A DNA stretch of 64,000 bases, taken from positions 1,426,001-1,490,000 of the forward strand of contig JAYWIR010000038.1 in NCBI GenBank assembly GCA_036172245.1. Reading direction: 5' to 3'. The stretch comes from Raillietiella orientalis (taxonomy: Eukaryota). The notes beneath the pieces were generated by a model, which worked only from the letters and a program-made list of their open reading frames with translations, made no database searches and was not told the DNA's origin. Position 1 is the stretch's first letter. Each line of letters starts with the position of its first letter. The position numbers and the translations under genes are program-made. Positions 16,501-42,200 of this stretch are shown here, piece by piece.

Positions 16501-16533
16501 AAGAAAAGTTCATCACTCAACCACTCTGGGATT

Positions 16534-17500
16534 TTTATTGACTACCAACAAAAAAGTTGAGAAAGAAACGGAACAAACACGCGGCAGTTCGAGGGGAGGA
16601 TCCTCCGACCGTACCCTAAAGGTGGGAGGGGGCAATAAAATGAATATAAAAAGAACACAGAAGGGCAGTCTTTGCCATCATCCTCTTCTTTAAAAAGCGG
16701 GAAAGGTCTGGAACGGATGAACGGGGGACAATGAATAAATAAATAGGAGGAAGGGTATGGAGTCTTTGGTATCGGCCGTTTTTTCCTCTGGAGCCTTGTT
16801 GGTCGCCAGCGATCTCCGTTCTCACTTATTCCAGGTGAGACCACCTGTCAACCGTCCTCGTGTAGGCGGCTGCCACACGGGTGACCTCCCGTAGCTGCTC
16901 TGGAGAGCTGCAGCGCGTGGCGAGGCGTGGCGATGGCGCGGATGCCGCATATGGCCGCGATCACTGCGCCACTCGAGAGTCTGCTGTGCACCGAAGAATC
17001 TCCGCAGGTCACGGGCGGCATCCTACTGGTGCAGCGGCTCAGAAGCCGGTCTCCACCATAGGTCTCTGAGGTCACCGGAATCGACCAGCCCCTGGAACAT
17101 CTCGGGGATGCAGCTCCCCTGGAGACCGTGAGGTGTCAGCACCGATTCCACTGGAATACCCAGTGCAAAAACAGCAGCACCTCATGCTTCCAGTTTGCCG
17201 GGAGCCGTGGCGTCCAAACACAAGACAGGGACCGCAAATTCTTCGAAGCAGCGCTAAAAAGTTGCCTCAGCTTTGCATGGGCACGTGGGGCGGAGGTATC
17301 AGCAAACTCAAGCGTCTTCCAGCCACCCTAGAAGTTCAGTCTTTCCCGCAATGGTGCAGGAGAATTTCCACTTTGCAGGTAGGAAACTGCTGCCCTTGGG
17401 GCAGGCAACGCTGCGGCAAGGAATGCGGTGACCAGGTTAGACCACTTTGCCGAGTCCTGCATTACTTCATCCAAGGGGTGGCTTAGGAATAGTCTCAGGG
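16534..17500 (-). mobile_element. Tx1-like LINE 3' fragment (diverged relative of the 18165 and 33290 copies)
   Basis: Minus-strand RLPANWKHEVLLFLHW, LVDSGDLRDLW, ARDLRRFF, AICGIRAIATPRH and HEDG..WSHL align in order with the 18165 copy. T-rich 3'UTR and AATAAA at 16534-16539. Confidence 0.65.
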
Positions 17501-17544: not shown

Positions 17545-18160
17545 CGTAGCATTTTTGGCGAGATCCTATTTTTCGATTCGCCGAGTGCCGAAGAACCACT
17601 CGCTTCCTTAGAGGGGGTCTCAAAGCTCTCAATGCACCATGCACGTCACCCGAGGGTACATGTAACTCCTCAAGTTAGGGAGCAGCCCCATAGGGACCAC
17701 CCTATGAATCCAGAAAGACTCCGGAGGAAGGAGTCCGTTCTTCTTATGCTTGAGAAAAGGGAATTTCCTTCTTATTCTCTCCAGAGATACCCCCATAGGA
17801 AGGGGCACCCCTTGTTTCTTCTCTGGAGGGAACCCGGAAGGACCGCTTCCAAATTTTCCTGAAGGGCGCTCCCCGAAGGGAGCAGCGCGCTTTTTTAACA
17901 CTGGAATGGCAACCTCCCTAGGAGGGCATCAACCAGTTCAATGGAGCGTGATGAAGGATCCCTCCCCGAGGGAGGATACGGCTGCATTTTCACAAGCGGT
18001 GAGAAACCCTGAAGGGAACCAGATCTTTCCATCCCTGGAAGGACCACGGAGGGCAAACTCCCAATCATGGCCAGTCAACGGGGGCATCAGTTTCCACCAA
18101 TGCGAAACCCACAGACCAATCAGGATCATCTTGTGGGGGGACTCGAAACTCATGGCGCAA
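17545..18160 (-). mobile_element. Long tRNA-headed SINE-like repeat, body and 3' part (head missing here)
   Basis: Collinear similarity to 41539-42268, 47143-47925 and 30696-31704 (e.g. tctctggagggaacc, ccccgaagggagcagcgcgc, ctggaaggacc, ccagtcaacgggg). Confidence 0.8.
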
Positions 18161-18164
18161 CTCT

Positions 18165-19608
18165 GATTCTTCTTCCCCTCCTCCGCCCCTTGCTTTTTGT
18201 TCACCCCCTGACATGCAGCATTAGAAAGAGGACGAAGGACTTCCTCCGGATCGCCCTTTGGGGCAAAAGGAGGCCCCGAGTCCGCCTAAAGGACTTGTGT
18301 GTTCCGCGCCGGGACGGCGGCCTAGGCCTTCTGACGCTGGAGCGAATGGAGCTGCAGCCCCAGTTTGGAACCCTTGCTATCGTGGCAAATCTCTGGAGCA
18401 TCACCTGGTGCCAACCTGCACGTCTTCTTGTCCAGAAAGCCACCGGTAGTGCGGGGCTCGCGTCCTTCCTTGCTTGCCGTCCATGCAGTCTCATCCATGG
18501 CGGATTGCAGCTGTGGCAGGTGGCAATGCTGGCGAGGAAAAAAGGATGAATCTCGTGCCGGTCCGCGAACGGTAATGTATGGTTGCAGGAAGCCGTTCGC
18601 ACGTAGGCGAGGACCCAAAAGCCAAATGGGGAACAGGGGAGACGTTTCCTGAATGCGCGCACCAACAAATGCACGCTCCGGGAGATCCTGGAAGATCACG
18701 CGAAGAGTGCATGGGCAAGCAGGACCTCCCTCGCCGCCACACTGCCTTTCTTGGGAAGCATATAGGCAGCAGACCTACGGCTAGATGGGAGGTCACTGTG
18801 GAAACCTACGGAAGGAGAAGAGGACTGGTCGAGTGGACGACGGGCCAGCTCACCGACGCTGCGACCCCGAGTGCTGGACATCGTGAACTTTTGAGCTGGA
18901 GCGTGCTACTAAGTATTCCGGAGAAAGATCTGCAGTGGCCCCCGGTGCTCATGAACATCCGCACCTTCCCTTTAAAGTGGCAGGAGTCGGCGTTGATGCT
19001 GCTGCACTGGGGCCTCCCGTGCAATGCGCGTCTGCATCATTGAACCCGGGGGGTTTATGGACCCAAATTGTGCAAGGTGCAGGGAGAGAGAATCCCTCCC
19101 GCACCTTCTAGTGGACTGTATTGCTCTCTGGTCCCTTTGAGGACTCTTTGCCGCGACCCTTGGAACCCTCGGCGGCAACGCCAGAGACGTTTGAAAGCTC
19201 CTCTTCCTGCGCGACGCCCTCACGCCGGTCGCATTCCCAGCAGCACTTTGCTGCCTACGCGGGATCGTGGCCTCATGAGGCAACTCCAGAGGAGGCCAGA
19301 ACGACAGGGACGTCATCTATTTTGCTGTTCTCTTCATGAGGATAGCGCTTCAAAATGGTCCCATCTGGGAGTCTTGAAACAGGAACTTGCCAGTATCCTG
19401 CGAAGGATGCAGAGGACGTCCTCCAGCACCCTGTGATCCCTTTCCGAACCCTCCCAATTTTTTGTATTTTTTGTTTGCCCTTCCCCCCTGCTGCCGAGGC
19501 GAACCCCACTGGCCGGCGCGCCGGTTCCCGGAAGGTTCCTCCTCGTAGTTGTAAGTAAGGTGGCAGGAGCAAATGTCCTGCGACACACGTTTATTTTTTA
19601 TGAATAAA
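18165..19608 (+). mobile_element. 5'-truncated L1/Tx1-clade LINE (ORF2 C-terminus plus 3'UTR), dead
   Basis: LWGKRRPRVRLKDLCVPRRDGGLGL motif; zf-RVT segment LHWGLPCNARL...DPNCARCRERESLPHLLVDC; T-rich 3'UTR; AATAAA at 19603-19608. Contains stops and frameshifts. Confidence 0.9.
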
Positions 19609-19790
19609 CGCCCCGGCGTGACCAGGTGTCAACGAGTGCTGGCTCACCCGAAGTCTACAGGTCAACCAGCGTCATCCTGCGGAGGGACTCGAAACCATGA
19701 GGCACCCATTTGCTAGGCGTGGATCCTACCCCGCACGGGATTCAAACCCGCTACGCTCGGTGTCGCACGGAGGCCTCAGCCAGACGGGGG
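19609..19790 (-). mobile_element. 5' (tRNA-head) part of the long SINE-like repeat
   Basis: cagcgtcatcctgc..gggactcg..gcacccatttgctaggcgt matches 42130-42190. Reverse B-box variant gggattcaaacccg. Confidence 0.75.
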
Positions 19791-20449
19791 TTTCTACGGG
19801 GACTTGGGATTGACCGGACTGTGCTCAGTGGCTGCTGGCATGGAATCCTCCTCCACAACGGACCTCCAGCATGTCACTGGAGTATTTGCAAGTACCACCA
19901 ACATCTGCACCGACGGCGGCTGGAGACGACCTCGCGCCCAAGCCCTTCTGCGCGCACCATCGTAACCTTCCTACCAGACGAAACCTGAGGAACCCGCCAT
20001 CCTCCGGTGGCGGTGTGCCGGAATTTAGGAACGCCTCTGCCCCAGCGGCCGGGTGCAGGCGGGACTCCTGGGATGCAGTTCACTTCCCGCAGGGCGCGTG
20101 ACTCCGGGTGGGTGAGTCGTCGGGCGAGCCCTTAGCGGATTCCCACTTCCAGCGTCGCCGCCCTGCTCTCCATAGCAACCAGCCAACAACTTTCACGGGA
20201 TTTGGTGAGCGTCGCATCGGGCACCGTGACGCAACATCTGGTTCGTCCCGTGGCTCCAGATCTGCTCACCGAAATTGGTTGTCTCTGTGCAGCCCAAGAC
20301 ACAACCGCCTCCTGCTGACAGGCATTCGAGTTCATCGGGAGGCTGAAGTTTCATCAGTGGACTTCCAGCTGAGCAGCAAGTTGCCTCAGCGGTAAGCCAA
20401 AGCCCCACGCCCTCTAGCGGAAGGACGGCAGCAGCGAGAGGTCTTCAGG

Positions 20450-21950
20450 AATCAGAACCTATTCGGATCTCGAAGGGGAGACGGGCAGCGTTCCGGAGTT
20501 GCGAGCTCAGTGGTAGCTTCCGAAGGCTATGAGCGAAACTCTGACTTTGTACTGCGATGCCTTTAGGATATTTAGGATATTCTCGAAAAATGATTTCGCG
20601 ATCGGAAGTCCAAGGAGTGCTCCTTCGGGCGCCTTGTTGAAAAAAGCGGACAGCAGATAGGGAGCACTTGTGCAGCGCGGAAATCGAAGGTGTGCTTTTT
20701 GCCCATCCTGGTCACGTGGCCTCAGCTACTCTTCGCTGGAGTTTGAAGCACTGAGAGGCCGGCACTGATGTTTCAGGCAGCTCACCTCTGGGTGGCGGTC
20801 TCGTCGCGTAGCCTTCTTGGAGAATGAGCAAACTTTGAACTATGACCGGGATCAGTTCTTGACTCTATTCGGGTCATCCGCGTCCAGCGCCTGCGTGCAA
20901 ATTTATGAGTGCAAAGTTGCGAGCTCGTCTGAGCGCCCTCGCCAGCATCGTCTCAAGCCGAAGGAGCAAACGGAAGTCAGAACTTCCCGACTTCTCCGTG
21001 ATGAAAATGCGAGCTCCTGGCCGACCGAGGGATTCCAAGAGCAGGCAGCATCAACCGAGCTGCGAGCGACCGAGTGGAATCCACGTGTTGCATGGTTGAC
21101 TTGCCTCCCGTGTCATAAATAAACACGATCCCCCATCACTTTCAAGGTTGAGTACGCATCCAGCGTTTTCAGCATCCATTTCAGTCCATTCCGGAAACGC
21201 GGGATTTAGGCAGCTACCCGTACATGCTGCTGGCCTTGAACCGAGCTGAATGAGTAGATTGTACAGTTCGGTAGTCACAGCCAAAGAACTGTGGAAATCG
21301 AAGTTCATTTCGGCCGCGTTCCTTAATGGAGGAGCGAGTCCTCGGCGCCAGCCACAGGAACATGCGCCGCAGAAAACTGTGGGGGAAATCCTCATTGAAG
21401 GACGAGGTGCGGAACAGTTCCTGGTTTGTTATCATCACAAACGAACTCGTCTTTAGGATCCCGCATCAAGCTTGAGGGATCTCCGAACGTGACGAAACCC
21501 GCTTCCAGAGAGGCTCCCCTAAATCCTTGTGCCTCGATGGTAACTTTCAAGGGGTTACAGAGTTCCGCATCACGAATAGCGGAAGCAACCTTCACTCTTG
21601 GAAGTCAGCATTATGGGTACGCAATAGCCGGCAGCACTTTGCTCAGGTTTCACTGCTTAAACGCTTGGCTCGATCTGCTCCACGCACGCAACTGCTGCTT
21701 TTCCACCTTCTGTGGATTCTGATCGCTGGCTGCCGCCGGTACCCACTTTGCGCTTTGCCACCTATTTCTGGCTTCCGTTTGTTTTGAAACTCCCACTCTA
21801 CTTCTTGTGCTTTTAGGAGTGCCTGTCATAATGCAAGAGGGAAAGAAGTGTGCCAGGGGACTCGATCGAGGACGATTCACCACGGCGCCACTTCGCATTG
21901 CGGCTGCATCTGACCTCGTGACCACGTGAAGTGCGAGGTTGAACGCAAGT
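20450..21950 (-). mobile_element. Decayed LINE ORF2 N-terminal (APE endonuclease) region
   Basis: Minus-strand GFVTFGDPSSLMRDPKD (cf. GDFN) and GARIF (cf. GAxiRsr). Heavily interrupted. Confidence 0.35.
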
Positions 21951-23099
21951 GGGATCGAGCGTGTTTCGAGACAGGGATTGGGGGCTCATGGCGCATGGGT
22001 CGAGGAGTGATGTACCTACAGTGATGCCACACTACGGTCTTCCTTGCGAACTGAGATCAGAAAGCGAGACTGAATCACAGATACGAGAATGCACTTAGGT
22101 GATCCTTTAATTAATAATTAATGCTTTCCATCGATCTTGACATTAGAACAGTATGGATAATGGAATCCGAAAATTTTCAATTTCCATTTTCTAGATCCGT
22201 GACCTTATGAACCGAAACAAGCAATAAGGAAACACGTCAGTAACAAATAAGAGAACAAGAAATAAGTCAGCCCTTTCACAATTTGAGTCTCCATAAAGCC
22301 GTAGTATTCCTTGAGGTGGAACTTTGCCATGTTATCGTTCTTGGAAAGTGTTCAAATTATAACAGGGCATCCAATCACACCCTTGCTTCGAAGAACAGTT
22401 TCCACTCCAGAATTGGTCCCTGTACGTACAGTGTTAAAGAAACCTGCTAAATTTCAAGTGCTTGCAAGAAACTGAAACTCATCAAGTTCTTGTACGAGCG
22501 TAGAAGAAAGGTTAGTCATTTTGGAAGGCAGAGAGAGAGAATCCTTTTGTTTGGTCAGCTCACCGTTTCTGAAGACGAGGGATGACGTTTTGCAGGATCC
22601 TTTGGTAACTTTCCGTTTCATTTGTAGTGACCCAATATGTGCACCCGTAGAATGATGCGGTCGGAAATTCGCCGAAGACGCGCATTTTCCGTGCTACATA
22701 TGAGAAAGGAAAAAAAAAAAAAAAAAAATGCAGCGGAAAGGTAAATGAGAAATAGCATCATCCGATACGAAAGGTGACTCGTGTAAAGCGAAACTCGTAA
22801 AGGGGATGGTGTCTGTAGGCACTTCAGTTAACTTTCCCCCGATTCTCATGACTCAAAAGTGGTGATGATTCATCGTGCAAACCCGCGAAGGGTCCCATAA
22901 AAAATCTCGCAGATTGCAGTTCGCGGACAACCTGATCTGCAGGAAAATGAAAAAAAAAAACGGAAAGAAAGAAAGAAAACTCATTCTGTGCGCCGTTGCT
23001 TCGTATTATCTCACTTCTTTTCAAGGTCAGCTATGAATCGAACGGTTAGACGAGTTTGGATTGAGCTTTCGAATTCCCGGAAAAGCATCGGGTGACATC

Positions 23100-25560
23100 C
23101 CCGCACACAAATAGAAGGTGCTTGTTTCTGCCTTTTACAGGTGACAGATCAGCAAGTTTACTTCTTTTCGAGGAACAGCCTTTGGACGAATGTTTAGCCC
23201 CCCTCAATGGTTGCGATCATAGGGTTCACAAGAAGGGAGCGCGAGGTCGTGTAGCCACAAACGAATCCCAGAACGCCTGACCCAGGTCAGAAGAGTATTC
23301 TTTGTTTTCCCTTCGTAGATTCCAGTAGTTTGCATTAGCCGTGTTGATGGAAAATAGTGGGTGCAAGAGGAAGACGACAGTTATTGACGAATGTACCTAA
23401 GAGTTTTGCCGATGGCGGTATTCTTGAATATTTCAGTACTTCTTCTCAAGAAAGCTTGAAAAGGGAAGCTGTTTGCAGGTAGGAAAAGTTCTCAACTCTG
23501 CCTTACAAGCGCACCACCGTCTTGCTGATACCGTAGGGACCACCGTGTGCTTCCGACGGAAGGACAATGCTTGCCATCATTGAATTACACTACATTTGTA
23601 TACGCCTTCCAAGTTGTTTCAGACCGACACTACCTTTAATTTTTTGTAGAACGAGTCATTTCAGTACATTTCCCTTTCTATAACTGTCTTGAGCATGCTG
23701 CTGCCTTCTGGAAAGATTTCGAAGATCTGAAGAAATCAGCCAGTTCTATTTGGCAGTTCTCCTTTCATGGTTTAGCCTCGCTTGTCGAAAACACTTTTCC
23801 TTTCATAGGCTGAAGCCCACCAATCATGAGACCTACTGCCTTCGTTTGAGCTTCTAGCACATGAGAAGCATTCAGACCTAGTAATCCACCTAGCTCCTTT
23901 CCACGACTTGGTCTTCATCCCGTACATCTCAGCGTACACCGAGTGCACGTGCCGTCCATCATGTGATAGCATCAAGCAGATTCGAAACCAAAAAGCTTAA
24001 AATGCTGTCCTCTTTATTCTTTAGAGGCACGAGCTACATTATTCATTGATTCGAGGCCCAGAGGAAACTTGAAGTGTTAGGTAATGAGATTGGTAATCTT
24101 GAGTTTCGCTTTTTCCACAAAAAAGTATCCATGGGCTGTCGTGACCTGTGACCTGTAATTACTAAGGATGCGATGCTTGGAGTTCATCATGAAGAAAGAC
24201 TGCTTTGTATGGGCAAACTGAGTGGCATGTGATCAGTCGTCTTTTTAAGTAGAACCTCCTTCACAAATTTTTTTCCAACTTCCTCCATGAGAAACGTGCC
24301 GTTTCGATTTCACTCTCGCTTTTTTGGATTTTCCGAGTCGAATCAATTTTGCATCTAATTTTACATCTTACCTCCTTCTTGCGTGTTACTTGCAGAAGCA
24401 GCATGCATCCTGCATAGCTCTTAAGAATCCTTTTGACTTACCTCGATACCTCAGGTCCCAAAGAGCAATTGCTTCAACACCACTCATACAATTCATTATC
24501 AATGACTCTGATACGTCATTCAACCGTTCTTTGCAGGTACTGGAGTGAAGAAGCGAAACGAAAAATGAATGGCATTTAGTGATTCTCTTTCAACAGCGGC
24601 AGCATCCGCAGCGTGGGGTTTTCACATGGTTGGATATCAGTGCACTTGAAACGGAGAGCTGAAGAGCACATCGCTGTTGAAAGTTTCCAACAGGTGCCTC
24701 GACAAATGAAACCATTTCCAGATGTGCAGCTTTCGCACAGCTCGTGTGAAGCGCAGTACGAGACATTCCTTTGGAAAGGATTGGGGCAACAGCTAAGAGA
24801 ATCTTCTCTTGATCTTTAACGTCTTCTTCAGTTTCTTTGCATGTCTTTGTAACTATTCTTCAAGTCCTCTAGGCAAGGTTTGAAGTCTGTCACCATGATT
24901 TTGCTTTATTGGCTCACGAGGAGGTAAAGTTCCCAGCACAGAGATTGCCATAGCGTGAGCTTCAATCTGGTAATCACAAGTGTGATTACCAGATTGCCTC
25001 GGGTGTTCACACACGGTGGACTTTTAAGGACGCCCTGATCGATGTGTTTATCCTTCATATGCATTATCAGGACACCAGAATCTTGTTGATGCGGTGGGGT
25101 CTTCCGCAGAAACCAAACGGTCACCATGCAACCTCGGAAAATGACCACATCGCAGAGTCGGTACAACCACCACGCACACATCTGGGATTCTTCAGGCTGC
25201 ACCAGGGCTCTACCCACACCATAATGACACTCCAATTCCCCAGGGATGGTTCCAGTACTCCTTCGGATTTATTGGTGGTGATCTTTTGCCACTTGTGAGC
25301 AGCAGCCATGGCAATGATGAATCTTGTCGCTATCAAGGGAGGGAGTCATTCGCAGCTGCCTTCTTTCTAGAGGAAGATGGGGAGGAATGGACCAACCTGG
25401 ATAATAGGATCAAAGCATACCTAGAGATAACTGACGACAGACTTGGGATTGACAGGTGAGCAGCACCTTATTGCCTTCCTTATCCCTACCCGGGTCTCTA
25501 TTACTCGGGTCCCACGTTCACGAAGGACCTTCCTTATTGGGAGAGGGTCAGTTCCTCCAC
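23100..25560 (+). mobile_element. Decayed Tx1-like LINE, RT through C-terminus
   Basis: Ordered degenerate motifs ISVLLLKK, CASDGRTM (cf. C-x-PGRSI), FRPSNPPS (cf. RQGCPLS), ISAYTEC (cf. AYADD), KLEVLG, YQDTRILLMRWGLP, and LEEDGEEWTNL (cf. LHEDSASKWSHL). Confidence 0.6.
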
Positions 25561-27299
25561 AGCATGCGGGATATGGATTGAAGGATCTCCCAAGGGACTG
25601 CAATGTCCTTCGTCCGAGGTGAGAACACGTGGTTGGCACTCATCGATCAAACTTTCGAAAATCAGAAGCGATGCTTCATCTTCATCTCATTTCTTCGTCC
25701 GCGATGGACTTCCAAAAACTACGCAACGATTACCATCAATTGGCACTCTTGTGCTGCAAGCGCTCCGGCATTGGGCAGCTCGTCCTGAGGAGGTGCACGC
25801 CAACAAAAGTGAGGGACCATCCCTTCTGGCCATTTTCATTCTATGAAGAGCGGCGAGGTGGTCTCGCCTGACCTCCACAGAAAGGAAGCACACCGAGGGC
25901 TGGAAGAACTGAAGAACGGTGGTGATCCCTTCACTCCTCACTATATACCCTTCACTATGTAGGGGAGTATGATTATTTCTGCATGTCTATCTTTTTCACT
26001 CTAGGGCTCGCTCCCTAGTACAACTAACTGCGCGTCGGGCAAAATTCCACTTCGTACAACCCCAATGAAAAATTAGTTCCAATAAGTATGTTATTTTTCT
26101 TATTTTCAATAAATGGCTCGGTCCATGTGATACGGTCAGGTCATGACTTCCAAGCTATTCGCAGTATCTCGGTCTTTGGGAATGCTCACTCCATGATGCT
26201 TATACAGCTGCATAGGGAGATTTTTGCCGATTTCCTGCTGAGATTTGTAGGCAGCAAATTTAGTGATTTTGAGCTCCAAAACGTGTTGGACCACTCTTAA
26301 GCTCCTAGCTTAGGAAAGCAATGTACGAGCGATATTCTTTGTCTGATAGCATACGGAGCAGGAATAGATGAAGAAAAGAATGAAAAAGAACACCAATCAC
26401 AGAGATTTTGCAGATTGACGCGGGCGGAGAAGGAATTAATGAAGAAGAAGATAGCCATCTGAAGCTTAGATCAATTCCTATGGAATTAAGAATCGCCATC
26501 ATCGCAAAGTATACCACAAATCACACCACACACGCAGCACACAGACGAATGAAGCTCCCCACATAAACAGAATTCTGCCTTTACCATCAGAAGTCACCTA
26601 AAAGCCTCTAATCCATCTTGTGCCTTATCCATCAATAGTCGACATCCTAATTGCAGGGACTACTATCAAAAAGATTTCATGTAAAACTGCAGCGCTCAGT
26701 AGAAAAAAAAAAAAAAAATCAAGACCCTGCGCATCCATCTTTTGGAGGACTACTCACTATGAACGAAAGATGTCCAAAAGGGCCATTGGGAAGTCCGCGA
26801 AGGTCCTGGAGGGGAGACTTAAGTGCGAAGCAAGATAAGTGCATCCGCGTTCCTTTTTATGGACTTCTGGGCTTCTTAAGTTGGCGTGATCCGTTTCAAA
26901 GATTTGGATCAATCAGTGCCTTTTAAGGTTTTTTTTCTTTTTGACTGTCCCTGGTTCCTAAAGAGGGTGTTGGGTAAAGTGAGCTCCACAATTTCCTGGA
27001 AGTTCGTATGGACGCATCAATCACGAAATCGTATAGAAAAATTTCTAGATTTCTGTAAGAAGCAGCAAGCGTTGTAGCTCGTCACTCTCTTCTTGGAACT
27101 GATGAAAGCAACTTCTCAGCAGGCGGAGTTCAGATTTCCACCAGTGAAGCGAAGAAAGGTCAGGCAGGAACCACTAAGGAGCGGAGCGCAGACATGCGAT
27201 TTTGACAGCTTCCAAGAACGCTTTGAAGAGAGGCAATGTGTTTGTTTGCCTTTTGGATATTTGACAAACCCTTGGAAGTCATCATTCTACTAGCGAAGG

Positions 27300-29160
27300 T
27301 CGAATCTTCAGGCAGGATTCCTTCCAAACTGTTTCCGGAGCAAGAGCTGCCAAGGTGGCATGCCCTCCAAACATCGAAAACTCATCAACCAAACTTCTGA
27401 AACTAAAGGGTGTCTATGGAATTTCCAATCTCTTGTCAGACTGAAGTATGACTCGGCTCCACGGATGCTGAGGAACTATCCATGCAGCACGCGCATGCAA
27501 CTTGGATACATCATGGTTGCAAACACTGCAATGTCTACTCTTCAAGGGAACTTCTTGGAGATTTTCAATCATACAATTCTGAAGTCTTCAGAGAGACACC
27601 CTCTCACCTTTGCGAGTCTCTTGTTCAGAATACCTTGAAAATGAACAGCTGAAACAAGAACTGCGGGCGTTGTCGCAGACGTAGGAGATCATCAGCAAGA
27701 AGTGCAGGCAGGAAGAGGAAGTAAACTGCTCATTTCCTGCACAACTCCAATGAAAAACGGATGCCGGAGTTTAGATCTCTTTCCATGCTACCTTGACCTC
27801 TAGCTTTCTTGATGTCACCCTCTTGGTTTCCTGGATGGGATCGTGTTCGCTCCACACCTCCACCATCTTTGGTAATTCTGCAGAGGCTGAGCATTTCACA
27901 ATCTGTTCCCCTGTAGCTTCCTCCAGTGGCGAAGAAGGAGGACAGCTTTTGTGGCTCAGCAGCAAGTTCGGATCCGAAATTATAAATTCCAATGTGTCAT
28001 GTTGAAGCGAGGCAATGGATTTTTAGAATCCGTCGCGCATCTTCCCAGGAGAGAGGTCGTTCCTAAAGAGACTTTAGAGATCCCTCCGAAGAGAAAAGGA
28101 CGTGTTTGCTTCCCAGGGTACTTCCATAATTGGCAAAAGAACTGACGGGTCTTTTGTACAAGAAGAGAAATTGTGGATCGCGTGTACCATCAAAGATAAT
28201 TGTTGATGGTTCGGGCGAACAGAATTCTTTCCGAGCAGCCGTGTGCGCTAATTGCACGAGACAGGACGGTTTCATCCTGGAAGTGCCTGTGTGCTCCATT
28301 TCAGCGTTGAACAGTCTCGCTGGCATCTTTCGGGAAAGTCCCTAAATGGTGTGGCGACGTGAAAAAAGCCATCTCTGCACAAGAGCGCCTTGTCCCCCCC
28401 CCCACACCTCTCCTTGCCGAAGTCTGAACAGTCGGCAAGAGTAAATCTCGCCTCTTTCGGTCATAATGCAAATCTTGCTGAGCTTAAATCTCGAGGAAAT
28501 GGTTGCTGCTTTCTTATCGTCGTGCTGCTCGAGAAGGATTCGGAGGAGACCAGCACCGTTTGAAATCCAAGCAGCAGGATCCCGTGGCCCATACAGCAAG
28601 CACGGAAAGAACACCGTCGCCTTTACAGCATCCTTCCCGGCTAGAGAGGGGACAAACCTCTGGGTCGCCCTTCGTTCTTCTTTGCCGAGCTCCATCGCTA
28701 TCAGAAATTTGCTCCACCATCAGGTGGCGCTGCAGAATAAGACGCTCAGTCAACGTGACCAGCACCCCTGGTCTCTCGAGAACACCTTGAAGTGTCCAGT
28801 CCACCCTCCACACTGGAAGCAAACCAATGGAATGGTGTGGAATGGCCCTCTGCACTTCCCAGTTCATCTAGCGCTTCAGCCAGGAACAAAGCCTCTACGA
28901 GGCATGCTGGGCGTGTGAGGTCAGCGTCGGGTGAACTGCATCGCGCCAGGAGCTGCAGCTTCCCTTCTTCTTCGACCACTCGCGCGAGTTCTCCCCCTTC
29001 GATCGCGCCCTTCAAGGTTCCTTCCCTAAGTTCAGTTTGGACCAAGGGGAGGTCCCGTCGCTTCCAGCTGGCGGACTGGGCGAGTCCACGTTCGACGAGA
29101 TCCCACTGGACCAACTGCTGCTGCTCGTGCTGGTGTGCCTGTGAACCCAAGGAAGGCATA
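27300..29160 (-). mobile_element. Decayed L1/Tx1 LINE ORF2 (pre-RT and RT)
   Basis: Minus-strand GEIYSCRLFRLRQGEVWGGGQG (cf. EEIxxALxxLxxGKSPGxDG) and FCSPEPSTIIFDGTRD. Interrupted frames. Confidence 0.45.
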
Positions 29161-29167
29161 TCGTTCG

Positions 29168-29659
29168 AAATCCCGGAAAATCATGAGAAATAAACACGCG
29201 CTTCTTGCACAGAGATTCATGTACAAATCTATTTTAGCATACATAGTTATTCGTATTTATTAACATCATATAATTAATGGTAATACAATTTTAACGTATA
29301 CATTTGTCACGATTGATTCACATACATTTTATTCATATAATGAATAAGTTGCTGATTGTATAGATAATATAAATATATATATATGTGTGTGAATATAGAT
29401 TTGTACATAAATATACATGTAAACATAAATATTACATATTTTTATGTATGTATGCGTATACAAATTCACATTCACATATTTTATTATTTATATATATCAA
29501 TAAATTGAATGAACATATACGTTGATTTTTTATGCTCTCCGTAATTATTAATCGTATGATGTCAAGAGATATGAATAACTATGTGTGCTAAACTAAATTT
29601 GTACATTGATCTATGCAGAATGAGCACATGCGTTTATTTCCTATGACCTTCCAGGATTT
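29168..29659. mobile_element. AT-rich foldback/MITE-like element with ~115-bp imperfect terminal inverted repeats
   Basis: Left arm aaatcccggaaaatcatgagaaataaac...atgtacaaatctattttagcatacatagttattc is the reverse complement of the right arm gaataactatgtgtgctaaactaaatttgtacat...gtttatttcctatgaccttccaggattt. Interior is very AT-rich. No target-site duplication seen. Confidence 0.75.
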
Positions 29660-30695
29660 TTTTGCTCGGCAAGTCCACGAAGGCGTCACAGGGCGCGCGA
29701 AAACTGCTCGAGGCGATTTTCTGTCTTCCCGAATTCTCTCCAAAGTCCCTTTGCAAAGGATGAAAGCGGACGCACTTGAAGAACTTGCAGGACGCTCTGC
29801 AGTCCTGCCGTCACCAAATTTTTCTGTCTCACCCTCGCAGAACGGAAGACAAGAATTGTTTTAACCTCAGGAGTACCAAAATGAAGAAGTCCTCCTTTTC
29901 CAGAGCTGCTACAGATTCAAAAGCTGGTGCTACTTCCGAGCAAATCTCGTATGCTCTTCCCTTTCCTTGCCTCGATGACTTCTTCCTCCTGGAAAGGTTG
30001 CATGGCAACGCATTTGTTGTTCTCCAGAAACCCTTGCTCTAGAACTTTTATTTCGAAATCTTTCATCATTCTTAATCTCACATCATCCCGATTGTGCTTT
30101 TTGAAGAGCAGTAGCCACCCCGAATCGAAGAAACCTACCCAGTGATTATCTCGTCACTGAATATGAGCGAAGAAGGATTGTGTGATGATGCATGTAGTCT
30201 TTCACTTCCACGAATTTCTTTTTTCTTCCTTGGAAGGCAAGAAGATTAAAATGAAGGGAACATGGTGAGAAGATGCCACTGAGATGAGCGGAATCACAAG
30301 AAAGGTGTTGGTCTTATGTCGACGTGTCACTCGAAGCCGCTCTCTTCCGAATTAACCGTGCCGGTTTTCTTGTTAACAGACATCCTCGTGTGCTGGATCA
30401 TTCCAAGAGGAGTAAGCAGTCTTTAATGGTCCATCACAGAATATCATCAGCAGATGGCTCAAGGCTGTCACACTCCAGTGAACCATGGCTTGTTAAGCTG
30501 AAGACATTGCCTTGCGAGCATCACTGTTGCTGCTTTCAAGGTCAGCTCGGTGTCTCCGGTGGTACTTCTTCAGCTGCCTGCAACTCGCAAAAGTTTGAGG
30601 GCAGTTTCAGAATTATCCCTACAATGGATAAGAAAAAAAAATGGCTCGCGTTATACCGAGAGATTCGATGTCCTTCCCTTCCTTCAGGAAAGACC

Positions 30696-31704
30696 TCAGC
30701 AACCGCTCACCCGGGACTCGCGAGCCTCTTTAACGCTGTCTGCTCCACCCGAAGGTGCGTGTTAACTCTTCCAGTTAGGGAGTTTCCCGGGAAGGGACCA
30801 TCCTGTGAATCCAGAAAGGCTCCGGGGGAAGGATTCCAGAGGAGCTTCTAGAAAGGGAACCACTTCCTCATTCTCTCTAGAGGAACTCTCCCCGGGTGGG
30901 GTCGCTCCTCGTTTCTTCTCCAAAGAGAACCCAGGAAAGGATCCGCTCCTGAAATTTCTTCTCTGGAGGGAATCCGCAAGGGAACTGTTGCTTGTTTCCT
31001 CCCCTGGAGAGGAACCCTGGAAGGGACGCTTGAGAATTTTTTTCCGAGAGGCTCTCCCCGGAGGGAGCAACGCTCTTCTCCACTCTCTGGAGATGTAGGG
31101 AAGTGCTCTGCCACGAAGGCGAGTCGCTGAGCTCCATGGTACGCGATCCTTCCCTAGGAAGGGAATGGCTCCATTTTCACAACCGGAGGGAAACCCTGAA
31201 GACCTCCTTTCGTGGAAGAGTCCATGAGTTTCAATAGCAGCAAAGAGTACACCCAGCATTCATCAAAAAAGCAAACTTTTGAAAGAGAATCACAAATGGA
31301 GCCTTCAATCGTACCCAGCAGGAGTCAGCTTCCGTAAAGAGGAGCGCATCCATCTTGTTCATTGACGCGCCTGAAAGCAAACTAACATCTCTACATCTTC
31401 ATGACTCCGTTGATAAAAACGAGACACAGCCAGGAGAGAAAGCTGTGCAGCTCTTTCTGGAGGCAGTTTTTTCGCAACCAGAAGGGAACCGGCTCCTTGA
31501 TGTCCTGGAAGGACCCTGGAGGGTCAACTTCCAATCCTGATCAGCCAACGGGGCATCAGACTTCCACCAGTGCCGTACCCGGAGCCAACCGAGGCCAACC
31601 AGCTCCGTCCTGCAGCACACCCATTTCTCGTCTTGGGATTCGAACCCGCAGCGCCTGAGTACTGCACGCGCGGCGACCGCAGTCATACAACCGCCAGCGC
31701 GGGA
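30696..31704 (-). mobile_element. Long tRNA-headed SINE-like repeat interrupted by ~200 bp of unrelated sequence (~31230-31440)
   Basis: Reverse-strand perfect B-box GGTTCGAATCC near 31636-31646. Body is collinear with the other copies. Confidence 0.8.
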
Positions 31705-31719
31705 GTGCCTTCGGAACTC

Positions 31720-32150
31720 CTCTCCAGAAAGGGGGACAGCTGGTCATCCTGGTTCACCCTGTGGAGTTCACGATGCTGGGTGTGCGGCACGTTCACGAAG
31801 CTTTCAGGAGCTCAGCTCGGGAGAGCACGCGGTGTCCGGCACTCACGTTGGCAGAGTTTTGCAGTCTCTCCCTGCATCCCTCGAGCTGGCTTCCTCGTAA
31901 GGAGCAGAGGTGGACAGTCCACGATCTGAGCGTGTAGCATGGTGGCGGCTCGGCGAGTGGGGAGATCTTCCAGCCATAGTGGTCACTTCGCAATGGAATG
32001 GGAACGCCGAGCGTTCAACCTGTCTGAAGCTAGGAAACTTCGTGCATCGCAGTGTTGCTTATGGGCAAGTCGATCTCCAGGTTCGTGCCACAGGCCTTCC
32101 AGCCACGGCCTTTTCGACTGGGATGCCTTAAAGATCTGTCATTAGGTCCT
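31720..32150 (-). mobile_element. LINE endonuclease fragment
   Basis: Minus-strand PGDRLAH...SDHYGW, matching the SRID/SDH end of an APE domain. Confidence 0.35.
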
Positions 32151-32498
32151 GCTTGTGGAGGATGGATGTCACTTGGAAAAGTGGATGGAGTCCGAGCTTG
32201 AAATCAAGAAATCCTCCAGGCGTGTTCGAGCTTTCAGGAAGAGTTTGCAGAAGTAAAGTAATTCGGGATGTCCTCAAAGAGAACTCGAACGGAAAGTGTT
32301 CTCTTCTTCCCTCATTCGCGAAGAGCAAAGATCGGATGTCCCCTTCAAATGTGAAAATCAGGGTGGCTTCCCTTGGAAGTCCTGACGAACAGAAGGCGAA
32401 GCTCGGAAAGGGAAGAAAAATGAAATGAAATATGCGAGAAGCCAGAAAACATCGGAAATGGAAGACGCTGCAACCGGTAAAAGGCACTTTAAAAAAAG

Positions 32499-32842
32499 GC
32501 AGCGTGCTGGCCGAGGACCTGAACCCACGACCGGTTCCTGTACCACGGAGGAAAGTGCTGATGACGGACGCCAGTGGGCTGCAGGAGGACATCCTGAGCG
32601 GCGAGGAGCTGTACAGGGCCGCGCAGGACTCTCTCTCGAAGGAGGCCACCAGCGCCGCCACCACGTCCACTATTGCCTCCCTGCGTCGCCTCCTGATGAG
32701 TGTCTCCCCACCCACTCCCTCTCTCTTGCGACCTACCCCTTCCTCTCCCCCCGTCTCCTCCAACGCCGCGCCAGGAACGGCTCCGTTGCCTAAAAGTAGG
32801 AAAGGAGGAAGCCCTCAAAAAGAGTACTTGGTCTGCTGGTAG
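32499..32842 (+). CDS. Putative terminal coding exon of an unidentified gene (Pro/Ser-rich, ends QKEYLVCW*)
   Basis: Strong GC3 codon bias like the receptor exons (GAG GAC CTG...CTG CAG GAG GAC ATC CTG AGC GGC GAG GAG CTG TAC). AG acceptor at 32497-32498 (alternative 32501-32502). TAG stop followed by T-rich UTR-like sequence. Upstream exons not found. Confidence 0.45.
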
Positions 32843-33289
32843 CTATGGAATTTTCATCATTCCCAAGCCATTGTTATTCTTTGCTGTTGCTGTTGATGTG
32901 ATTTGTTTATTTTGTTTTTTCTCATTCCTCTTTACCTCTTCGTGATGCTGTAGAACCCCGCAGGAACTTTCCAAGAGGTGATCGGACTTGATGAAACGCA
33001 CAGTCCCACCGACTTCTGTCTGTGTTTATTTATTTATTTACTTTGCAGAAAATAGACTCTCCCGAGCAACTGGATGAAAATCCCACGATCTGAGCGATGT
33101 AAACTTGCAAGGGATTCCAGTATTTTATCCCGTTTTCCCCTCTGTACGATAGAAGCACTTTAATACTACATGCCGAGCTTGGATCATGTCCGAGGTGGAG
33201 CGTTCAGCACTCACATCGCCTTCGTGTGACAACACCTCATTAATCTTGTAAAATCCCACCCTTTCGCACCTCCTAAAAATGCCTCTATC

Positions 33290-34197
33290 GTGGGAGTCCG
33301 CTGCGATTTCAGATGCATAAAGAGGCGATCGCTGCACCGTCTCATCTTGGATCTTGGACGACTTTCCCTCTTTGACCGCTCAGGGAAACCTTTCGATCCC
33401 AGTCCTCGACATTACGCGTTTCGACTTTCTGTCGTCCCGAAAGGCTGCCCTCCCAAGCTTGACTCTGAAAAAACTGACCGACTCTTGGTCTTTCGCATTC
33501 TTCCGGAGGAGGTGAAGTGGCCTCCAGTGTGATAGAACAGTGCAAACCTCCCATGAAGTGATAGGAGTCGGCGTTGATGCTGCAGCAGTGGGGCCTCCCG
33601 TGCAATGCGCGTCTGCATCATTGAACCCGGGGGTTGTATGGACCCAAACTGTGCAAGGTGCAGGGAGAGGGAATCCCTCCCGCACCTCTTAGTGGACTGT
33701 ATTGCTCTCTGGTCCCTTTGAGGACTCTTTGCCGCGACCCTTGGAACCCTCGGCGGCAACGCCAGAGACGTTTGAAAGCTCCTCTTCCTGCGCGACGCCC
33801 TCACGCCGGTCGCATTCCCAGCAGCACTTTGCTGCCTACGCGGGATCGTGGCCGCATGAGGCAACGCCAGAGGAGGCCAGAACGACAGGGACGTCATCTA
33901 TTTTGCTGTTCTCTTCATGAGGATAGCGCTTCAAAATGGTCCCATCTGGGAGTCTTGAAACAGGAACTTGCCAGTATCCTGCGAAGGATTAAGAGGACGT
34001 CCTCCAGCATCCGGTAATCCCTTTCCGAACCCTCCCAATTTTTTGTATTTTTTGTTTGCCCTTCCCCCCTGCTGCCGAGGCGAACCCCGCTGGCCGGGGA
34101 GCCGGTTCTCAGAAGGTTCCTTTTTGTATAGATATGTAACGTAGCAGGAAAAATGCCCTACCACTGACCTGTATGCTTATTTTTTTTTATAAATAAA
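33290..34197 (+). mobile_element. Second 5'-truncated copy of the Tx1-like LINE 3' end
   Basis: 33563-34087 is nearly identical to 18982-19507 (DPNCARCRERESLPHLLVDC). AATAAA at 34192-34197. Confidence 0.9.
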
Positions 34198-34299
34198 CGC
34201 CCCGGTGCAACCGAGGTCAACCCATTCCGAACGGCCACTGAATGCACTGAGAAACCCATGATGAGGAGCACTGGAAGCGAGCACTGTTCGTGCGAGCTC

Positions 34300-39200: not shown

Positions 39201-42200
39201 GGCACGCTTTGAGTGTTCCGATCTGTTGTGTTGCACTCTTTCCCGGTACTAATCGATGAATGATACTCTCCGCCAACTTGAAAGTCACTTAGGAGAGATC
39301 TCCATTTCAATGAAGAGTGGGTCCAATTTTCGGTGATCTGAACATGCAACCGCATGATATGAAGTGTCGCCTACATGATCTGCAACGCGTCGGATCCAGT
39401 CCCCTTATCAAATGCAAATGGGAAGAAGCAAGAAAGCTTACCAAGGACATCTCTCCCGAAATCGATTGGATTCTTTCAACTCTCCCCTGCTGAAACAAAC
39501 GGATGCAGTTCCTTAGCAACTTCCATCCAGTTCCCAAACGCGGATGTGTATTTGTGGATCTTCTTCCTCTTTTACACCTTCTTGGAAACTGCCTGATGCA
39601 CACTTATCTTTTGTCTATTTTCGAGCGTAAAAGGGGAACACTTTCGCCCACGTTGGATGGACCAAAGGCATTGCAAGGGATCTGAAAATTTCTACAAAAA
39701 ATTCCAGCGGAGGAAGGAATGGATGAAGGGAGTAATTACAAGTGATGTGTACATATATCTGAATAAGACCGAGAAAACTTCGCAAAGGAGCAGGAAGCTG
39801 TATTCATCATATGTTCTATTCAATCGTACACAATTGGTTCGCATACTAAGAGGAACTGTTTCCCCAAGTGCCGATGGGGATGTGAACCCCCACCTTCAAG
39901 TCTGCCAATAGCTTTCGGACAGAAGGCCACCTACCAAATGGTCCACCCTAGCATCCCCCAAAACTTGCTCTCTTCCCTTGTCACTTTTTCGTCCGGTGAA
40001 CGAACGTTTCAATTATTCCTGTCATCAATCTTTCGGCAGTCTTCTTTCATGGGGCTCGATTCTCTTTATTGACTTCAGTCGTCAAGAACAGCTCGCCTTG
40101 TTCCATTTTCCTTCAATAGCCGATCCGATAAGTCATCACGCATCGGAAGGTATTGCTCAGTGACACCTCCCTGTAAAAAAAGAAATGCCAGTGGATGGTG
40201 GCAATCGATCGTTATCACGTGCTACCACCTCGCAACCATGTGTGGTCAAGACTAGTTGTCCAAAGGTTATTTCGGAAAATTCCCTCTCATCTTGTCGAGA
40301 AATTGAACACTCTCGGATTGTGTGGTGGTAGCGAAAATGCACCACAAACCGCGTGCACATTCCACAGGAGTGCTCAAGTGGCGAGAAACGCAACTCGGAT
40401 ACAAAAGTTGCCCTTGAGCGAAATGCGAAAGGAAATCAATGATTTCCCAAAGTTGCGGCTTGACATCTCCTCATGTTCTCCGAATAGCCATCATTATTTA
40501 TTCCTTAATGGCATCGTCATTTTGCCTTCTTGTTTATGCAGAACCCAACTACATCGATGGCGATCGGCCGAACTCTTAACACTGCTGTGCATACAGCGTT
40601 CTCATGAATTGGTTTCCTCCCAGAGACGTGCACCCAGTGAACAAGCGTGTAACGGAATCTGAATCTTGACCCCATGGAACATTTGTCAAGGATAATTCCG
40701 ATGGAAGGGGAAGTTCGAATTTAAACGATCCCCGCCCTTCTACCGCCTCTCGCGCTCTTCTGAGAGCACGCATGCTTTTCTATCCTGGATTCGATCTTAT
40801 CTAGAAGTGAGGAGTAGAAATGCACTTCATCGTTTCTTTCTCTTCTCGGCGACCTACCTGAAGACTCACCGAAAGAACTCGTCGGATCCACATGCTAGCG
40901 GTTTCCTAGGAAGTGGTCACCTCTTCTTATCGTTTCTACGACGAAATCCCCGATGCGGATTCACTGCGTTTCCGAAGCACTGAGTTGTAATCCTTTCTTA
41001 GGCAGCATCTTTAGGTTAGGTTAGGTTAGGTGAATCGGTGTCTTGCGCAGAGCAGGACACTCGCGTTCCCGTTCTGTGCGTCCAAGATCTAACTGAACCC
41101 TTGGAGATCGCCAAACTGCCCCGTGGCAATCCCTTCCCTACTTGGACCGATTTACACTTCTGGGATTTCCGGAGGCAGGTGCCTTCACTCGCATTTATCC
41201 ATCCTGAATGTCTCCTCCACCGGAGCTCCTATGAGATAGGGTGGTCCGCCAAAGTTTGGAAGCACCCAAAACGGATTTTTAGAAAAAATTCCGCCACTTC
41301 TGTTCAACTTCCAAAGCTCCGTCTCTTTCCACATGATTGCGGAATGCCCATTCAGAAGATTTCTTTGTTCCTGTTTGCGAGCTACCTGGAGCGTGCCTGC
41401 TGTGAAATCTCGAGTCAAAGGGCGCCATTGTTTTCGACACCTCTGCTTACGTCGAACCAACCAACGGCGTTGCAAGTGGTCCAACGATGGTCTGATGCCG
41501 CAGAATGTAAAAAATATCATCAGAGATTTTCGATGGGATTTTTTTTCTTTTTCTTTTTTTGGTTCGTCAAGTGCTGATGAACCGCCTCCTTCCTTTAAAC
41601 ACTGTCCACGCCACTTGAGGGTGCGCGTAACTCTTCAAGTTAGGTACAACCCTCTAGGGACCACCTTGTGAACCTAGGAAGGCCCCGGAGGAAGGAGTTC
41701 ATTTCTTTCTCACGCTTGACAGGGAACATCGAATTTGATTTCCTCCTAAAGTGCCTCCCACCTCATGGGATTGTCCCCATAGGGGGCACTCCTTGTTGCT
41801 TCTCTGGAGGGAACCTCGAAGGGCCGCTTCCAAATTTCTCTGAAGGGCTCTCCCCGAAGGGAGCAGCGCGCTTCTTGCCCTCTGGAGAGACAGCTCCCCG
41901 AGGGAGTATCAACCAGCTCCATGTTACGCGTTGGAGGGTTGTCCCCCTCAAGGGGGGAACGGTCTCTACCACAGACGGGGATGCATTTCCTCAACCGGAG
42001 GGAAACCCCCAAGGGAACCGGCTCCTTGATGTCCTGGAAGGACCTTGGAGGATCAACTTTCAATCCCGGCCAGTCAACGGGGTCATCCGACTTCCACGAG
42101 TGCCGCACCCGGAGCCGACCGAGGCCAGTCAGCGTCATCCTGCGGGCGGGACTCGGAATCCCCGACGCACCCATTTGCTAGGCGTCGATCCTCTCCCGGG

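Follow-up and report, generated by a model that had tools for sequence, protein, structure and literature searches.

Can a LINE that ends without poly(A) have taken its 3' end from a SINE, and does such an element then prefer SINEs as insertion targets? The question arises from a 64,000-nucleotide stretch of Raillietiella orientalis DNA (hereafter the window), in which one copy of a LINE family, c1, lies within a SINE and the terminal sequence of a second copy, c2, resembles the same SINE read antisense. The coordinates of the features discussed are collected in Table 1.

Table 1. Repeats, tails and SINE sites of the locus, in window positions.
Feature	Position	Strand	Remarks
LINE copy c1	18174..19608	+	5'-truncated 3' fragment (post-RT region, CCHC-like motif, 3'UTR) up to AATAAA; many stops
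c1 3' tail	19609..19633	+	after AATAAA, without poly(A); 19/26 identical to c2 tail
LINE copy c2	33497..34197	+	same family as c1, 5' truncation deeper
c2 3' tail	34198..34222	+	20/23 match to antisense SINE site 2
Core tract	18985..19505 vs 33566-34086	+	97% identity, ungapped, four in-frame stops in common; gene-conversion-like
SINE piece A1	17583..18173	-	body with 3' end, lacking the head (model positions 1-587); SINE sense is the minus strand (box B)
SINE piece A2	19629..19800	-	head, model positions ~505-654; GGTTTGAATCC at 19748, minus strand
SINE site 2 (antisense read), copy D	31578..31600	+	best match to c2 tail
SINE site 2, copy B (41570-42268)	42108..42130	+	3 mismatches to degenerate motif
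SINE site 2, copy C (47143-47894, opposite orientation)	47284..47306	-	2 mismatches
Third copy, diverged relative of LINE 3' region	16719..16890	-	nhmmer E=0.013, marginal; collinear weak tblastx matches

A probable L1-superfamily LINE in two truncated copies

The two LINE copies lie in identical orientation, 14.6 kb apart. With their tails included, c1 is a 1.46-kb 3' fragment (18174-19633) and c2 a 0.73-kb one (approximately 33497-34222), and the translations of both contain many stops. The 5' boundary of c1 is marked by the SINE, whose model alignment stops at 18173 (nhmmer). By eye, the PLLRPLLFV motif of P0001, a 619-aa RVT_1 protein (E=4.7e-24) and the nearest protein to c1, is readable in the c1 translation from 18175. 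Residues 447-611 of P0001 match c1 at 18196-18687 in tblastn. A separate alignment gives 60% identity to P0001 over 115 aa at 18202-18546. Around c2 and its tail there is a weak candidate for a 5-nt target-site duplication, CATTC (33496-33500 and 34223-34227). Searches of metagenome, genome and viral collections found no further copies of the family.

An affinity of the family with the L1 superfamily is seen through P0001, whose best solved relative is the human L1 ORF2p (E ~1e-39, as against 7e-17 for R2). Full-length relatives, at most 30% identical to P0001, combine Exo_endo_phos (PF03372), RVT_1 and zf-RVT (PF13966). The APE-type endonuclease part is missing from the c1 and c2 fragments and is seen in these distant full-length relatives only. 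A C-x2-C-x7-H-x4-C string (CARCRERESLPHLLVDC) can be read in both copies; the ORF pieces in which it lies had no Pfam match. Scans of 26 and of 150 window ORFs (leaving out five ORFs of 100-102 aa and those under 100 aa outside the copies) detected no Pfam RT domain, because what is left of c1 and c2 begins downstream of the RT. The affinity seen is with the L1 superfamily (L1/Tx1 group) and does not establish the Tx1-like label of the original prediction; the words "Transposon TX1" in source names are no more than automatic labels.

The original prediction had described both LINE copies as well preserved, and BLAST does align c1 18916-19616 with c2 33501-34205 at 90% identity over 712 columns. 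This figure is a mosaic of two kinds of sequence. The core tract, which is repeat D1 at a spacing of 14581, is identical at 506 of 521 positions, whereas the edges on its two sides are identical at 49/71 (69%) and 78/112 (70%; Fisher p=3e-24). Both copies are in fact stop-riddled fragments, and they would look well preserved because the 521-nt core was homogenised later, probably by gene conversion across 14.6 kb, as judged from two sequences only.

A diverged third copy with a weakly similar 3' end had also been proposed. A marginal relative of the LINE 3' region is present, with CAATAAAA near 16532-16539; the similarity of its end did not survive comparison, since the sequence after its AATAAA is no more like the two tails than are random 25-mers (fractions 0.10 and 0.45).

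A common 3' tail and its likeness to the SINE

As had been claimed, neither AATAAA (19603-19608 in c1, 34192-34197 in c2) is followed by an A-run, and the two copies have a tail of ~25 nt in common. CGCCCCGG stands directly 3' of AATAAA and is identical in both, the first 8 nt of the tail being the same. Overall, the 25-mers at 19609-19633 and 34198-34222 are identical at 19 of 26 aligned columns (73%). The 14-mer AATAAACGCCCCGG has two exact matches in the window, with a chance expectation of 0.27 at up to two mismatches. A third match on the minus strand (19046-19059, two mismatches) lies within c1 and is irrelevant. Homology between c1 and c2 stops at 19632-19633 and 34221-34222 according to both BLAST and nhmmer, and the LINE model ends in c1 at 19632 (nhmmer).

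The 25-mer could be part of the element or part of the target DNA. In nhmmer and MAFFT alignments the c1 25-mer can also be placed on a SINE site, site 1, which would make it target DNA and leave only CGCCC as element-borne. It is, however, identical to site 1 at only 12-15 of 26 positions, as against 19 of 26 to the c2 tail, and at 12-18 of 27-28 to SINE site 2. The identity between the tails is close to that of the neighbouring LINE edges, and the flank of c2 is not SINE. On this comparison, the better supported reading is that the 25-mer travels with the LINE as its own 3' terminus, because the retrotransposed RNA would have ended ~25 nt past AAUAAA and given rise to DNA copies without poly(A). 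A tail without poly(A) is unusual for the L1/Tx1-type group, which counts against the explanation that we favor below.

The SINE itself, described by a 655-position model, occurs at four loci and in both orientations; by their spans, these make up ~4-5% of the window. Its copies are short and dispersed, and their heads have a common end point, whereas only copy B has an evident A-rich end. The element had been called a tRNA-SINE. The second half of that name holds, whereas the first is left to box-B-like motifs on the SINE sense strand, namely GGTTCGAATCC in two of the four heads (C and D) and GGTTTGAATCC in that of A2, as ARAGORN found 0 tRNAs and Rfam no tRNA match. On the same strand, copy B has GGCTCGAAACC.

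The c2 tail matches SINE site 2 in copy D at 20 of 23 nt (local score 16), and the site recurs in copies B and C, in agreement with the original prediction. The same SINE site was found by nhmmer in the c2 flank (E=0.024 within the 252-nt flank). Also as predicted, the match does not continue: beyond 34222 no SINE was found, random segments being as SINE-like as this flank (fractions 0.30-0.76; 327/500 and 436/500). Taken alone, the c1 tail shows no significant likeness to the SINE: it scores 8 at best in local alignment, below the random mean of 9.9.

Could the likeness be a coincidence, the 25-mer being an ordinary LINE terminus the nesting of c1 due to chance and the resemblance to the SINE a chance similarity of GC-rich sequences? 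Old repeats are piled up here, nesting by itself is unremarkable given the share of the window that is SINE, and the random-level score of the c1 tail fits this explanation as well. However, the score of the c2 tail was equalled by only 5 of 3000 random 25-mers and by 0 of 2000 GC-matched ones. The match also has the orientation of the c1 junction and lies within ~30 nt of it on the 655-position model, which by rough arithmetic contributes a further factor of ~0.05. All of these significance values are post hoc, with nulls taken from a single window and only two informative LINE copies. We consider coincidence improbable; with the c2 tail surpassing random 25-mers and c1 lying antisense in the SINE 6-30 nt from the matching site, the link between tail and SINE is likely real.

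Nesting of c1 and the question of site specificity

The proposed position of c1 between a collinear SINE body and head that overlap was confirmed. The overlap of A1 and A2 depends on where A2 begins: it is ~100 model positions if A2 starts at 19614, model position 488, as in nhmmer (19614-19800 corresponding to 488-654), or ~80 if it starts at 19629, as in BLAST (19629-19779 aligned to 42093-42247). c1 is antisense to the SINE. Its junction, at model position ~488 or ~505, is 6-32 nt away from site 2, where the tail would place it.

Strict site specificity predicts that the flanks after AATAAA fall at one fixed SINE coordinate and continue into the SINE head. The two window copies have no such common coordinate: the flank of c2 is not SINE, and c1 is off by the distance just given. 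The junctions are out of register, against what strict annealing to site 2 requires. Only one of the two informative LINE copies in the window is within a SINE, and of the four SINE loci, B, C and D have no LINE at the site. No clean target-site duplication around c1 was seen in the alignment of the A1 and A2 overlaps. The original prediction had offered homing into the SINE or a SINE-complementary tail; these observations do not bear out strict homing and leave the tail as the better supported of the two. A preference of the LINE for the SINE as a target is plausible but unproven. A broader version, in which an L1/Tx1-type LINE without poly(A) homes to a tRNA-like SINE region by means of its 25-nt antisense-SINE tail, through RNA-DNA pairing and/or its endonuclease, is possible but doubtful; the SINE would then be a safe-haven target, and the tail, being complementary to SINE RNA, could also link LINE and SINE through their RNAs.

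A true SINE-targeting LINE might nevertheless account for both junctions if the endonuclease motif occurred twice in the SINE, at sites 1 and 2, ~32 nt apart. c1 would be on target at site 1, with its 25-mer after CGCCC being SINE DNA, and the c2 tail would be target DNA of site 2 whose remaining SINE was lost later. The nhmmer start of A2, the collinear SINE on either side of c1 and the close match of the c2 tail to site 2 agree with this. In the overlap, A1 and A2 have small indels in common as compared with B, C and D (by eye), which would fit a single SINE copy whose target-site duplication was long and has decayed, and targeting of other transposons is known for Tx1-clade LINEs (PMC4494074). 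On the other hand, the overlaps are identical at only 48/63 positions with 20 gap columns, A1 and A2 are no closer than A1 and B or A1 and C, and A2 is closer to B. Sites 1 and 2 are themselves only weakly alike (13/27 and 16/29), the c1 25-mer resembles the c2 tail better than site 1, SINE is lacking past c2, and at most one copy would be on target. We judge this explanation unlikely.

Copying at the DNA level offers another route: a small segmental duplication or gene conversion could have derived c2 from the c1 locus, or replaced part of it with c1 sequence, taking the LINE end along with 25 nt of SINE flank. The common 25-mer would then be flank DNA and imply no insertion preference. The 97% core with its four common stops does show that DNA exchange, or something similar, took place between the two loci, and the copies have like orientation at their distance of 14.6 kb. 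The tail, however, falls outside that tract, where identity is 70%. The c2 tail also agrees with site 2 (20-22/27) far better than with site 1 (13-16 of 26-27), although site 1 is the one that adjoins c1, and c2 begins as an ordinary 5'-truncated copy would, possibly with a CATTC duplication. We consider such copying very improbable as the origin of c2.

Proposed history and relation to known systems

The explanation that we favor, and to which we would give slightly less than an even chance, is that c1 and c2 are ancient and dead remnants, both 5'-truncated, of a single LINE family, presumably APE-type and with a CCHC-like motif, that has its own SINE-derived terminus, that c1 inserted near the source junction, and that the core was converted later. 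For the terminus, an origin in the SINE is the most likely one: the LINE copy that served as source would have lain antisense in a SINE at approximately the boundary between GAGTGC and CGCACCC. We infer that read-through transcription from this copy into the next 25 nt turned that stretch into the tail of the family. c2 would be a copy that carried the tail to a non-SINE site, while c1 would have landed antisense in another SINE copy, 6 nt from the presumed source junction (~30 nt by an alternative alignment). This suggests a possible regional preference for part of the SINE, which could be exerted by the endonuclease or, in target-primed reverse transcription, by base-pairing between the nicked target and the SINE-like tail of the RNA. 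Homogenisation of the core would have been the last step.

Parts of this history have parallels. Tx1-Mar LINEs of crocodilians, members of the Tx1 clade (Kojima 2015), have as their target a Mariner transposon, which they enter "around position 240" and in opposite orientation to it, a target being defined in that study as a sequence found in >20% of flanks (PMC4494074). In both cases insertion would be regional, into another interspersed element and in opposite orientation: here c1 is antisense in the SINE, and the tail corresponds to the antisense SINE strand. The systems differ in that the Tx1-Mar target is a DNA transposon hit by many copies, with poly(A) being normal for L1- and Tx1-type elements as well as for the SINEs mobilised by Tx1-Mar, whereas here the candidate target is a SINE, poly(A) is absent and one or two events are seen (PMC4494074).

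In R1Bm and SART1Bm, both target-specific LINEs, the RNA has at its 3' end sequence taken from the target or resembling it. For R1Bm, downstream target sequence is needed for accurate reverse transcription, 3' transduction is also seen, and RNA ends that resemble the target over a short stretch may pair with it once it is nicked (PMC7265360). The tail described here would likewise give the template RNA a target-like 3' end able to pair with nicked target, and read-through into downstream target sequence is described there too. Those elements, however, belong to other clades and insert with precise junctions into rDNA or telomeric repeats, unlike the out-of-register junctions and the tailed copy outside a SINE found here. 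A further parallel is L1 3' transduction, in which a source copy takes its downstream flank along to new sites (PMC7265360); the presence of 25 nt of SINE behind AATAAA at a non-SINE site would thereby be explained. L1 transductions, though, have poly(A) at their end and as a rule are confined to a few offspring, whereas the tail lacks poly(A) and appears to be a family feature, being present in two copies that are ~30% diverged.

Should the preference prove unreal, what is left is a nest of old repeats like many others, with the main lesson that local gene conversion can give dead LINE fragments a young look. If it is real, SINEs would join DNA transposons, LTR elements, snRNA, rRNA and tRNA genes and microsatellites as targets of L1/Tx1-type LINEs. 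The family would then also provide a natural example of an RNA tail, captured from the target, that stands in for poly(A) in the priming of reverse transcription, which would bear on the evolution of target choice and on the design of LINE-based insertion tools.

Affinity, mosaic identity and age of the LINE copies

The two 3' fragments of the LINE, c1 and c2, could be aligned by BLAST and nhmmer from 18916/33501 to 19632/34221. Only c1 reaches further upstream, to about 18174, and the alignment of the adjoining SINE piece A1 stops at 18173. The translation of c1 (PLLRPLLFV...ALWGKRRPRV...GGLGL) is typical of the stretch just after the reverse transcriptase (RT) of a LINE, and a CCHC-like string follows further downstream. 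In a large protein collection the closest relative was P0001, a 619-aa RVT_1 protein with 60% identity to c1 over 115 aa. The best solved relative of P0001 is human L1 ORF2p (E ~1e-39; R2, 7e-17), and the full-length proteins related to it, none above 30% identity, carry endonuclease, RT and zf-RVT domains. This affinity and domain make-up argue, at the level of sequence comparison, that the family of c1 and c2 belongs to the L1/Tx1 group. Since P0001 is its single close relative and the full-length relatives are so distant, the family is poorly represented in public protein sets. P0001 is itself one fragment from a 2870-bp contig, and the nearest ESM Atlas clusters are RVT_1 groups without names from mixed taxa. 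Among metagenome contigs P0001 matched seven loci, all distant relatives with 22-61% identity over short segments and uninformative on junctions. A CpG-free 22-mer of the LINE 3'UTR had no match in metagenome, genome and viral contigs. The CpG observed/expected ratio of this eukaryotic window is about 0.8.

Pfam detected no RT domain in the 176 window ORFs scanned, and c1 was the sole window match when P0001 and nine further relatives were searched by tblastn. A stretch near 15900-16400 on the plus strand that appeared RT-like by eye received no support from Pfam. A continuation of the LINE to the left of A1 found no support either, as tblastn with P0001 gave just a weak minus-strand match (17305-17024, E=0.23) at odds with the tblastx hits. 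The original prediction included a diverged third copy with a weakly similar sequence after its AATAAA; a relative of the LINE 3' region is indeed present, though marginal, but the sequence past CAATAAAA was no more tail-like than chance (fractions 0.10 and 0.45).

Features of the window and identity between the two LINE copies (c1 coordinates unless stated)
Feature	Position	Strand or orientation	Evidence or identity
SINE piece A1	17583-18173		nhmmer, model positions 1-587
SINE piece A2	19614-19800		nhmmer, model positions 488-654; BLAST homology starts 19629
SINE copy B	41570-42268	plus	nhmmer model
SINE copy C	47143-47894	opposite to B	nhmmer model
SINE copy D	30691-31704, three pieces		nhmmer model
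Marginal relative of LINE 3' region	16890-16719	minus	nhmmer E=0.013; weak collinear tblastx hits
c1 vs c2, upstream edge	18916-18984		49/71 (69%)
c1 vs c2, core	18985-19505 (33566-34086 in c2)		506/521 (97%), 521 nt, gapless
c1 vs c2, downstream edge	19506-19608		78/112 (70%)
c1 vs c2, tail	19609-19633		19/26 (73%)
LDL-receptor class A domain ORF	44776-45174	plus	PF00057, E=5.6e-6, above cut-off
Eukaryotic LSU rRNA, weak match	19908-20342	minus	30.4 bits vs gathering score 50, E=0.0021, sub-threshold

The identity between c1 and c2 is a mosaic in which core and edges differ strongly (Fisher p=3e-24), and the cores share the same four in-frame stop codons. Both copies had been described as well preserved, a view that had to be abandoned, as they are 5'-truncated and full of stops. 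The 70% edges and the shared stops also contradict the idea that they are young. Had the copies been young and independent offspring of an active master, they would show neither shared nonsense mutations nor a switch from 100% to 70% identity within a coding region. Instead, we infer from the two sequences that both copies are old, differing by about 30% and of roughly the same age as the SINE copies. Their middle would have been homogenised at the DNA level, and the simplest route is gene conversion between repeats that lie 14.6 kb from each other in the same orientation. At such an age, their target-site duplications would be badly decayed by now.

The SINE family and the pieces flanking c1

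Comparing the window with itself, and searching it with an nhmmer model made from the SINE copies, defined four loci of one repeat about 655 positions long, with 63-86% pairwise identity among copies. Box-B-like motifs are found on the sense strand at the end termed the head, GGTTCGAATCC in C and D, GGTTTGAATCC in A2 and GGCTCGAAACC in B, and the far end of B is A-rich. It is therefore reasonable to take the plus strand as the antisense reading of the SINE. While these motifs agree with the earlier designation as a tRNA-SINE, they do not establish a tRNA origin, since ARAGORN detected no tRNA in the window and Rfam gave no tRNA match there.

The nesting of c1 between a collinear SINE body (A1) and head (A2) was borne out, although the two overlap by 80-100 model positions rather than the roughly 70 bp proposed. 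Identity in the overlap was 54/86 (63%) in one alignment and 48/63 aligned positions with 20 gap columns in another. Here A1 resembles A2 no more than it resembles B or C, while A2 is nearer to B; the overlap is therefore not a recent duplication, and a recent target-site duplication was rejected as its source. By eye, two small deletions relative to B, C and D are common to A1 and A2 in the alignment. Given the age of the copies, it is possible that A1 and A2 are one SINE with a long, decayed target-site duplication, and equally possible that they are two different SINE copies.

At 31226-31461 copy D is broken by some 235 bp of unrelated sequence that is richer in AT, with model positions 395-458 on both sides (...CAACCGGAGGGAAACCC... 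and ...CGCAACCAGAAGGGAACC...). The arrangement resembles an insertion bordered by a long direct repeat, a structure of the same kind as that around c1. Model positions 206-268 are also present twice in D with no insert (30961-30983). The SINE body is made of similar GGAGGGAACC and GAAGGG motifs, which can blur alignments. Two of its stretches read antisense, site 1 (collinear with the c1 tail) and site 2 (matched by the c2 tail), lie about 32 nt apart (model around 42085-42135 in copy B), are weakly alike (13/27 and 16/29) and both finish in CCA(C/A)C + (C/G)AG; they may reflect an old internal duplication of the SINE. Between the inverted copies B and C (inverted repeat I1) lies the LDL-receptor class A ORF, probably a host-gene exon. 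The LSU rRNA-like match just past the head A2 could be either noise from GC-rich sequence or an old fragment resembling rDNA.

The 25-nt tail and its likeness to the SINE

As predicted, neither LINE copy has an A-run after its AATAAA; both continue with an identical CGCCCCGG, and their homology ceases only after 19633/34222. This 25-mer has diverged as much as the LINE just before it (73% vs 70%). The c1 tail is nearer to the c2 tail than to the SINE, with 12-15/26 at the collinear site 1 and 12-18 of 27-28 at site 2. In addition, nothing behind the c2 tail is SINE-like. These comparisons point to a 25-mer carried along by the element. Alternatively, CGGCGTGACC... in c1 could be DNA of SINE site 1, to which nhmmer and MAFFT are able to align it, with just CGCCC borne by the element.

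The SINE-free flank of c2, also anticipated, was evident in every comparison. In the c2 flank, nhmmer picked up just the tail itself. An anchored semi-global alignment of the flank to the SINE scored below shuffles, with 436/500 shuffles and 327/500 random segments doing as well, and local alignments from an alternative register were ordinary (fractions 0.30, 0.47 and 0.76). The flank was thus at random level in all three tests, and its reading as decayed SINE, suggested by an A2-like GAGAAACCCATGATGAGGAGCAC seen by eye, was dropped. A 5-nt repeat, CATTC, brackets c2 and its tail (33496-33500 and 34223-34227) and is too short for much weight.

The reported match between the c2 tail and the antisense SINE was recovered as 20/23 at site 2 of copy D (31578-31600), a site also present at 42108-42130 and at 47284-47306 (minus strand). 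When 25-mers from unique parts of the window were scored against any SINE copy on either strand, 5/3000 random and 0/2000 GC-matched 25-mers reached the score of the c2 tail. The match is on the antisense SINE strand, the relative orientation in which c1 is nested. A2 picks up again after the c1 tail (GAGTGC...) about 6 nt upstream of the match, or about 30 nt on another alignment. Even allowing for a post hoc search, it is unlikely that likeness, orientation and proximity to the c1 junction would coincide in these sequences by chance, and coincidence is accordingly an improbable account of the whole. By itself the c1 tail shows no significant likeness to the SINE (its best local score is 8 vs a random mean of 9.9). 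Such a value is acceptable in a sequence that is 73% identical to a tail matching at 20/23, but it lends no independent support.

Possible origin of the terminus and insertion preference

The LINE terminus thus lacks poly(A), extends about 25 nt past AATAAA, is common to two old copies and resembles the antisense SINE, and one copy is nested antisense beside the resembling stretch. We propose, tentatively and from two copies, that the tail is element-borne and SINE-derived, with a likely but unproven regional preference. A source copy inserted in a SINE (junction about GAGTGC|CGCACCC) would have been transcribed 25 nt onward, so that this terminus was captured. The distance of about 25 nt fits cleavage behind a poly(A) signal. 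Reverse transcription would then begin at the captured end, and insertion may be biased to this region of the SINE by the endonuclease, or else by base pairing between the SINE-like tail and SINE DNA that has been nicked.

Parallels exist in the literature. In a Mariner element, Tx1-Mar LINEs insert "around position 240" and in the opposite direction; among Tx1-clade elements, target preference is described as frequent (PMC4494074). For R1Bm, accurate reverse transcription needs downstream target sequence, 3' transduction was seen, and annealing to the target is possible for short RNA ends that resemble it (PMC7265360).

The original prediction had offered either homing into the SINE or a SINE-complementary tail, and the second is the better supported. 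Strict homing is doubtful, since the two junctions do not fall in register, c2 lies outside the target, and nothing interrupts the site in B, C and D, three of the four SINE loci. Moreover, poly(A) is present on the SINEs that Tx1-Mar mobilises (PMC4494074), unlike the tail of c1 and c2. Copying of the flank at the DNA level is the least probable account.

LINEs that prefer other transposons are already known. In the open-access literature searched, we found no paper with a SINE as the preferred target of a LINE and none with both "Tx1" and "inserted into SINE"; a SINE may therefore represent a new class of LINE target.
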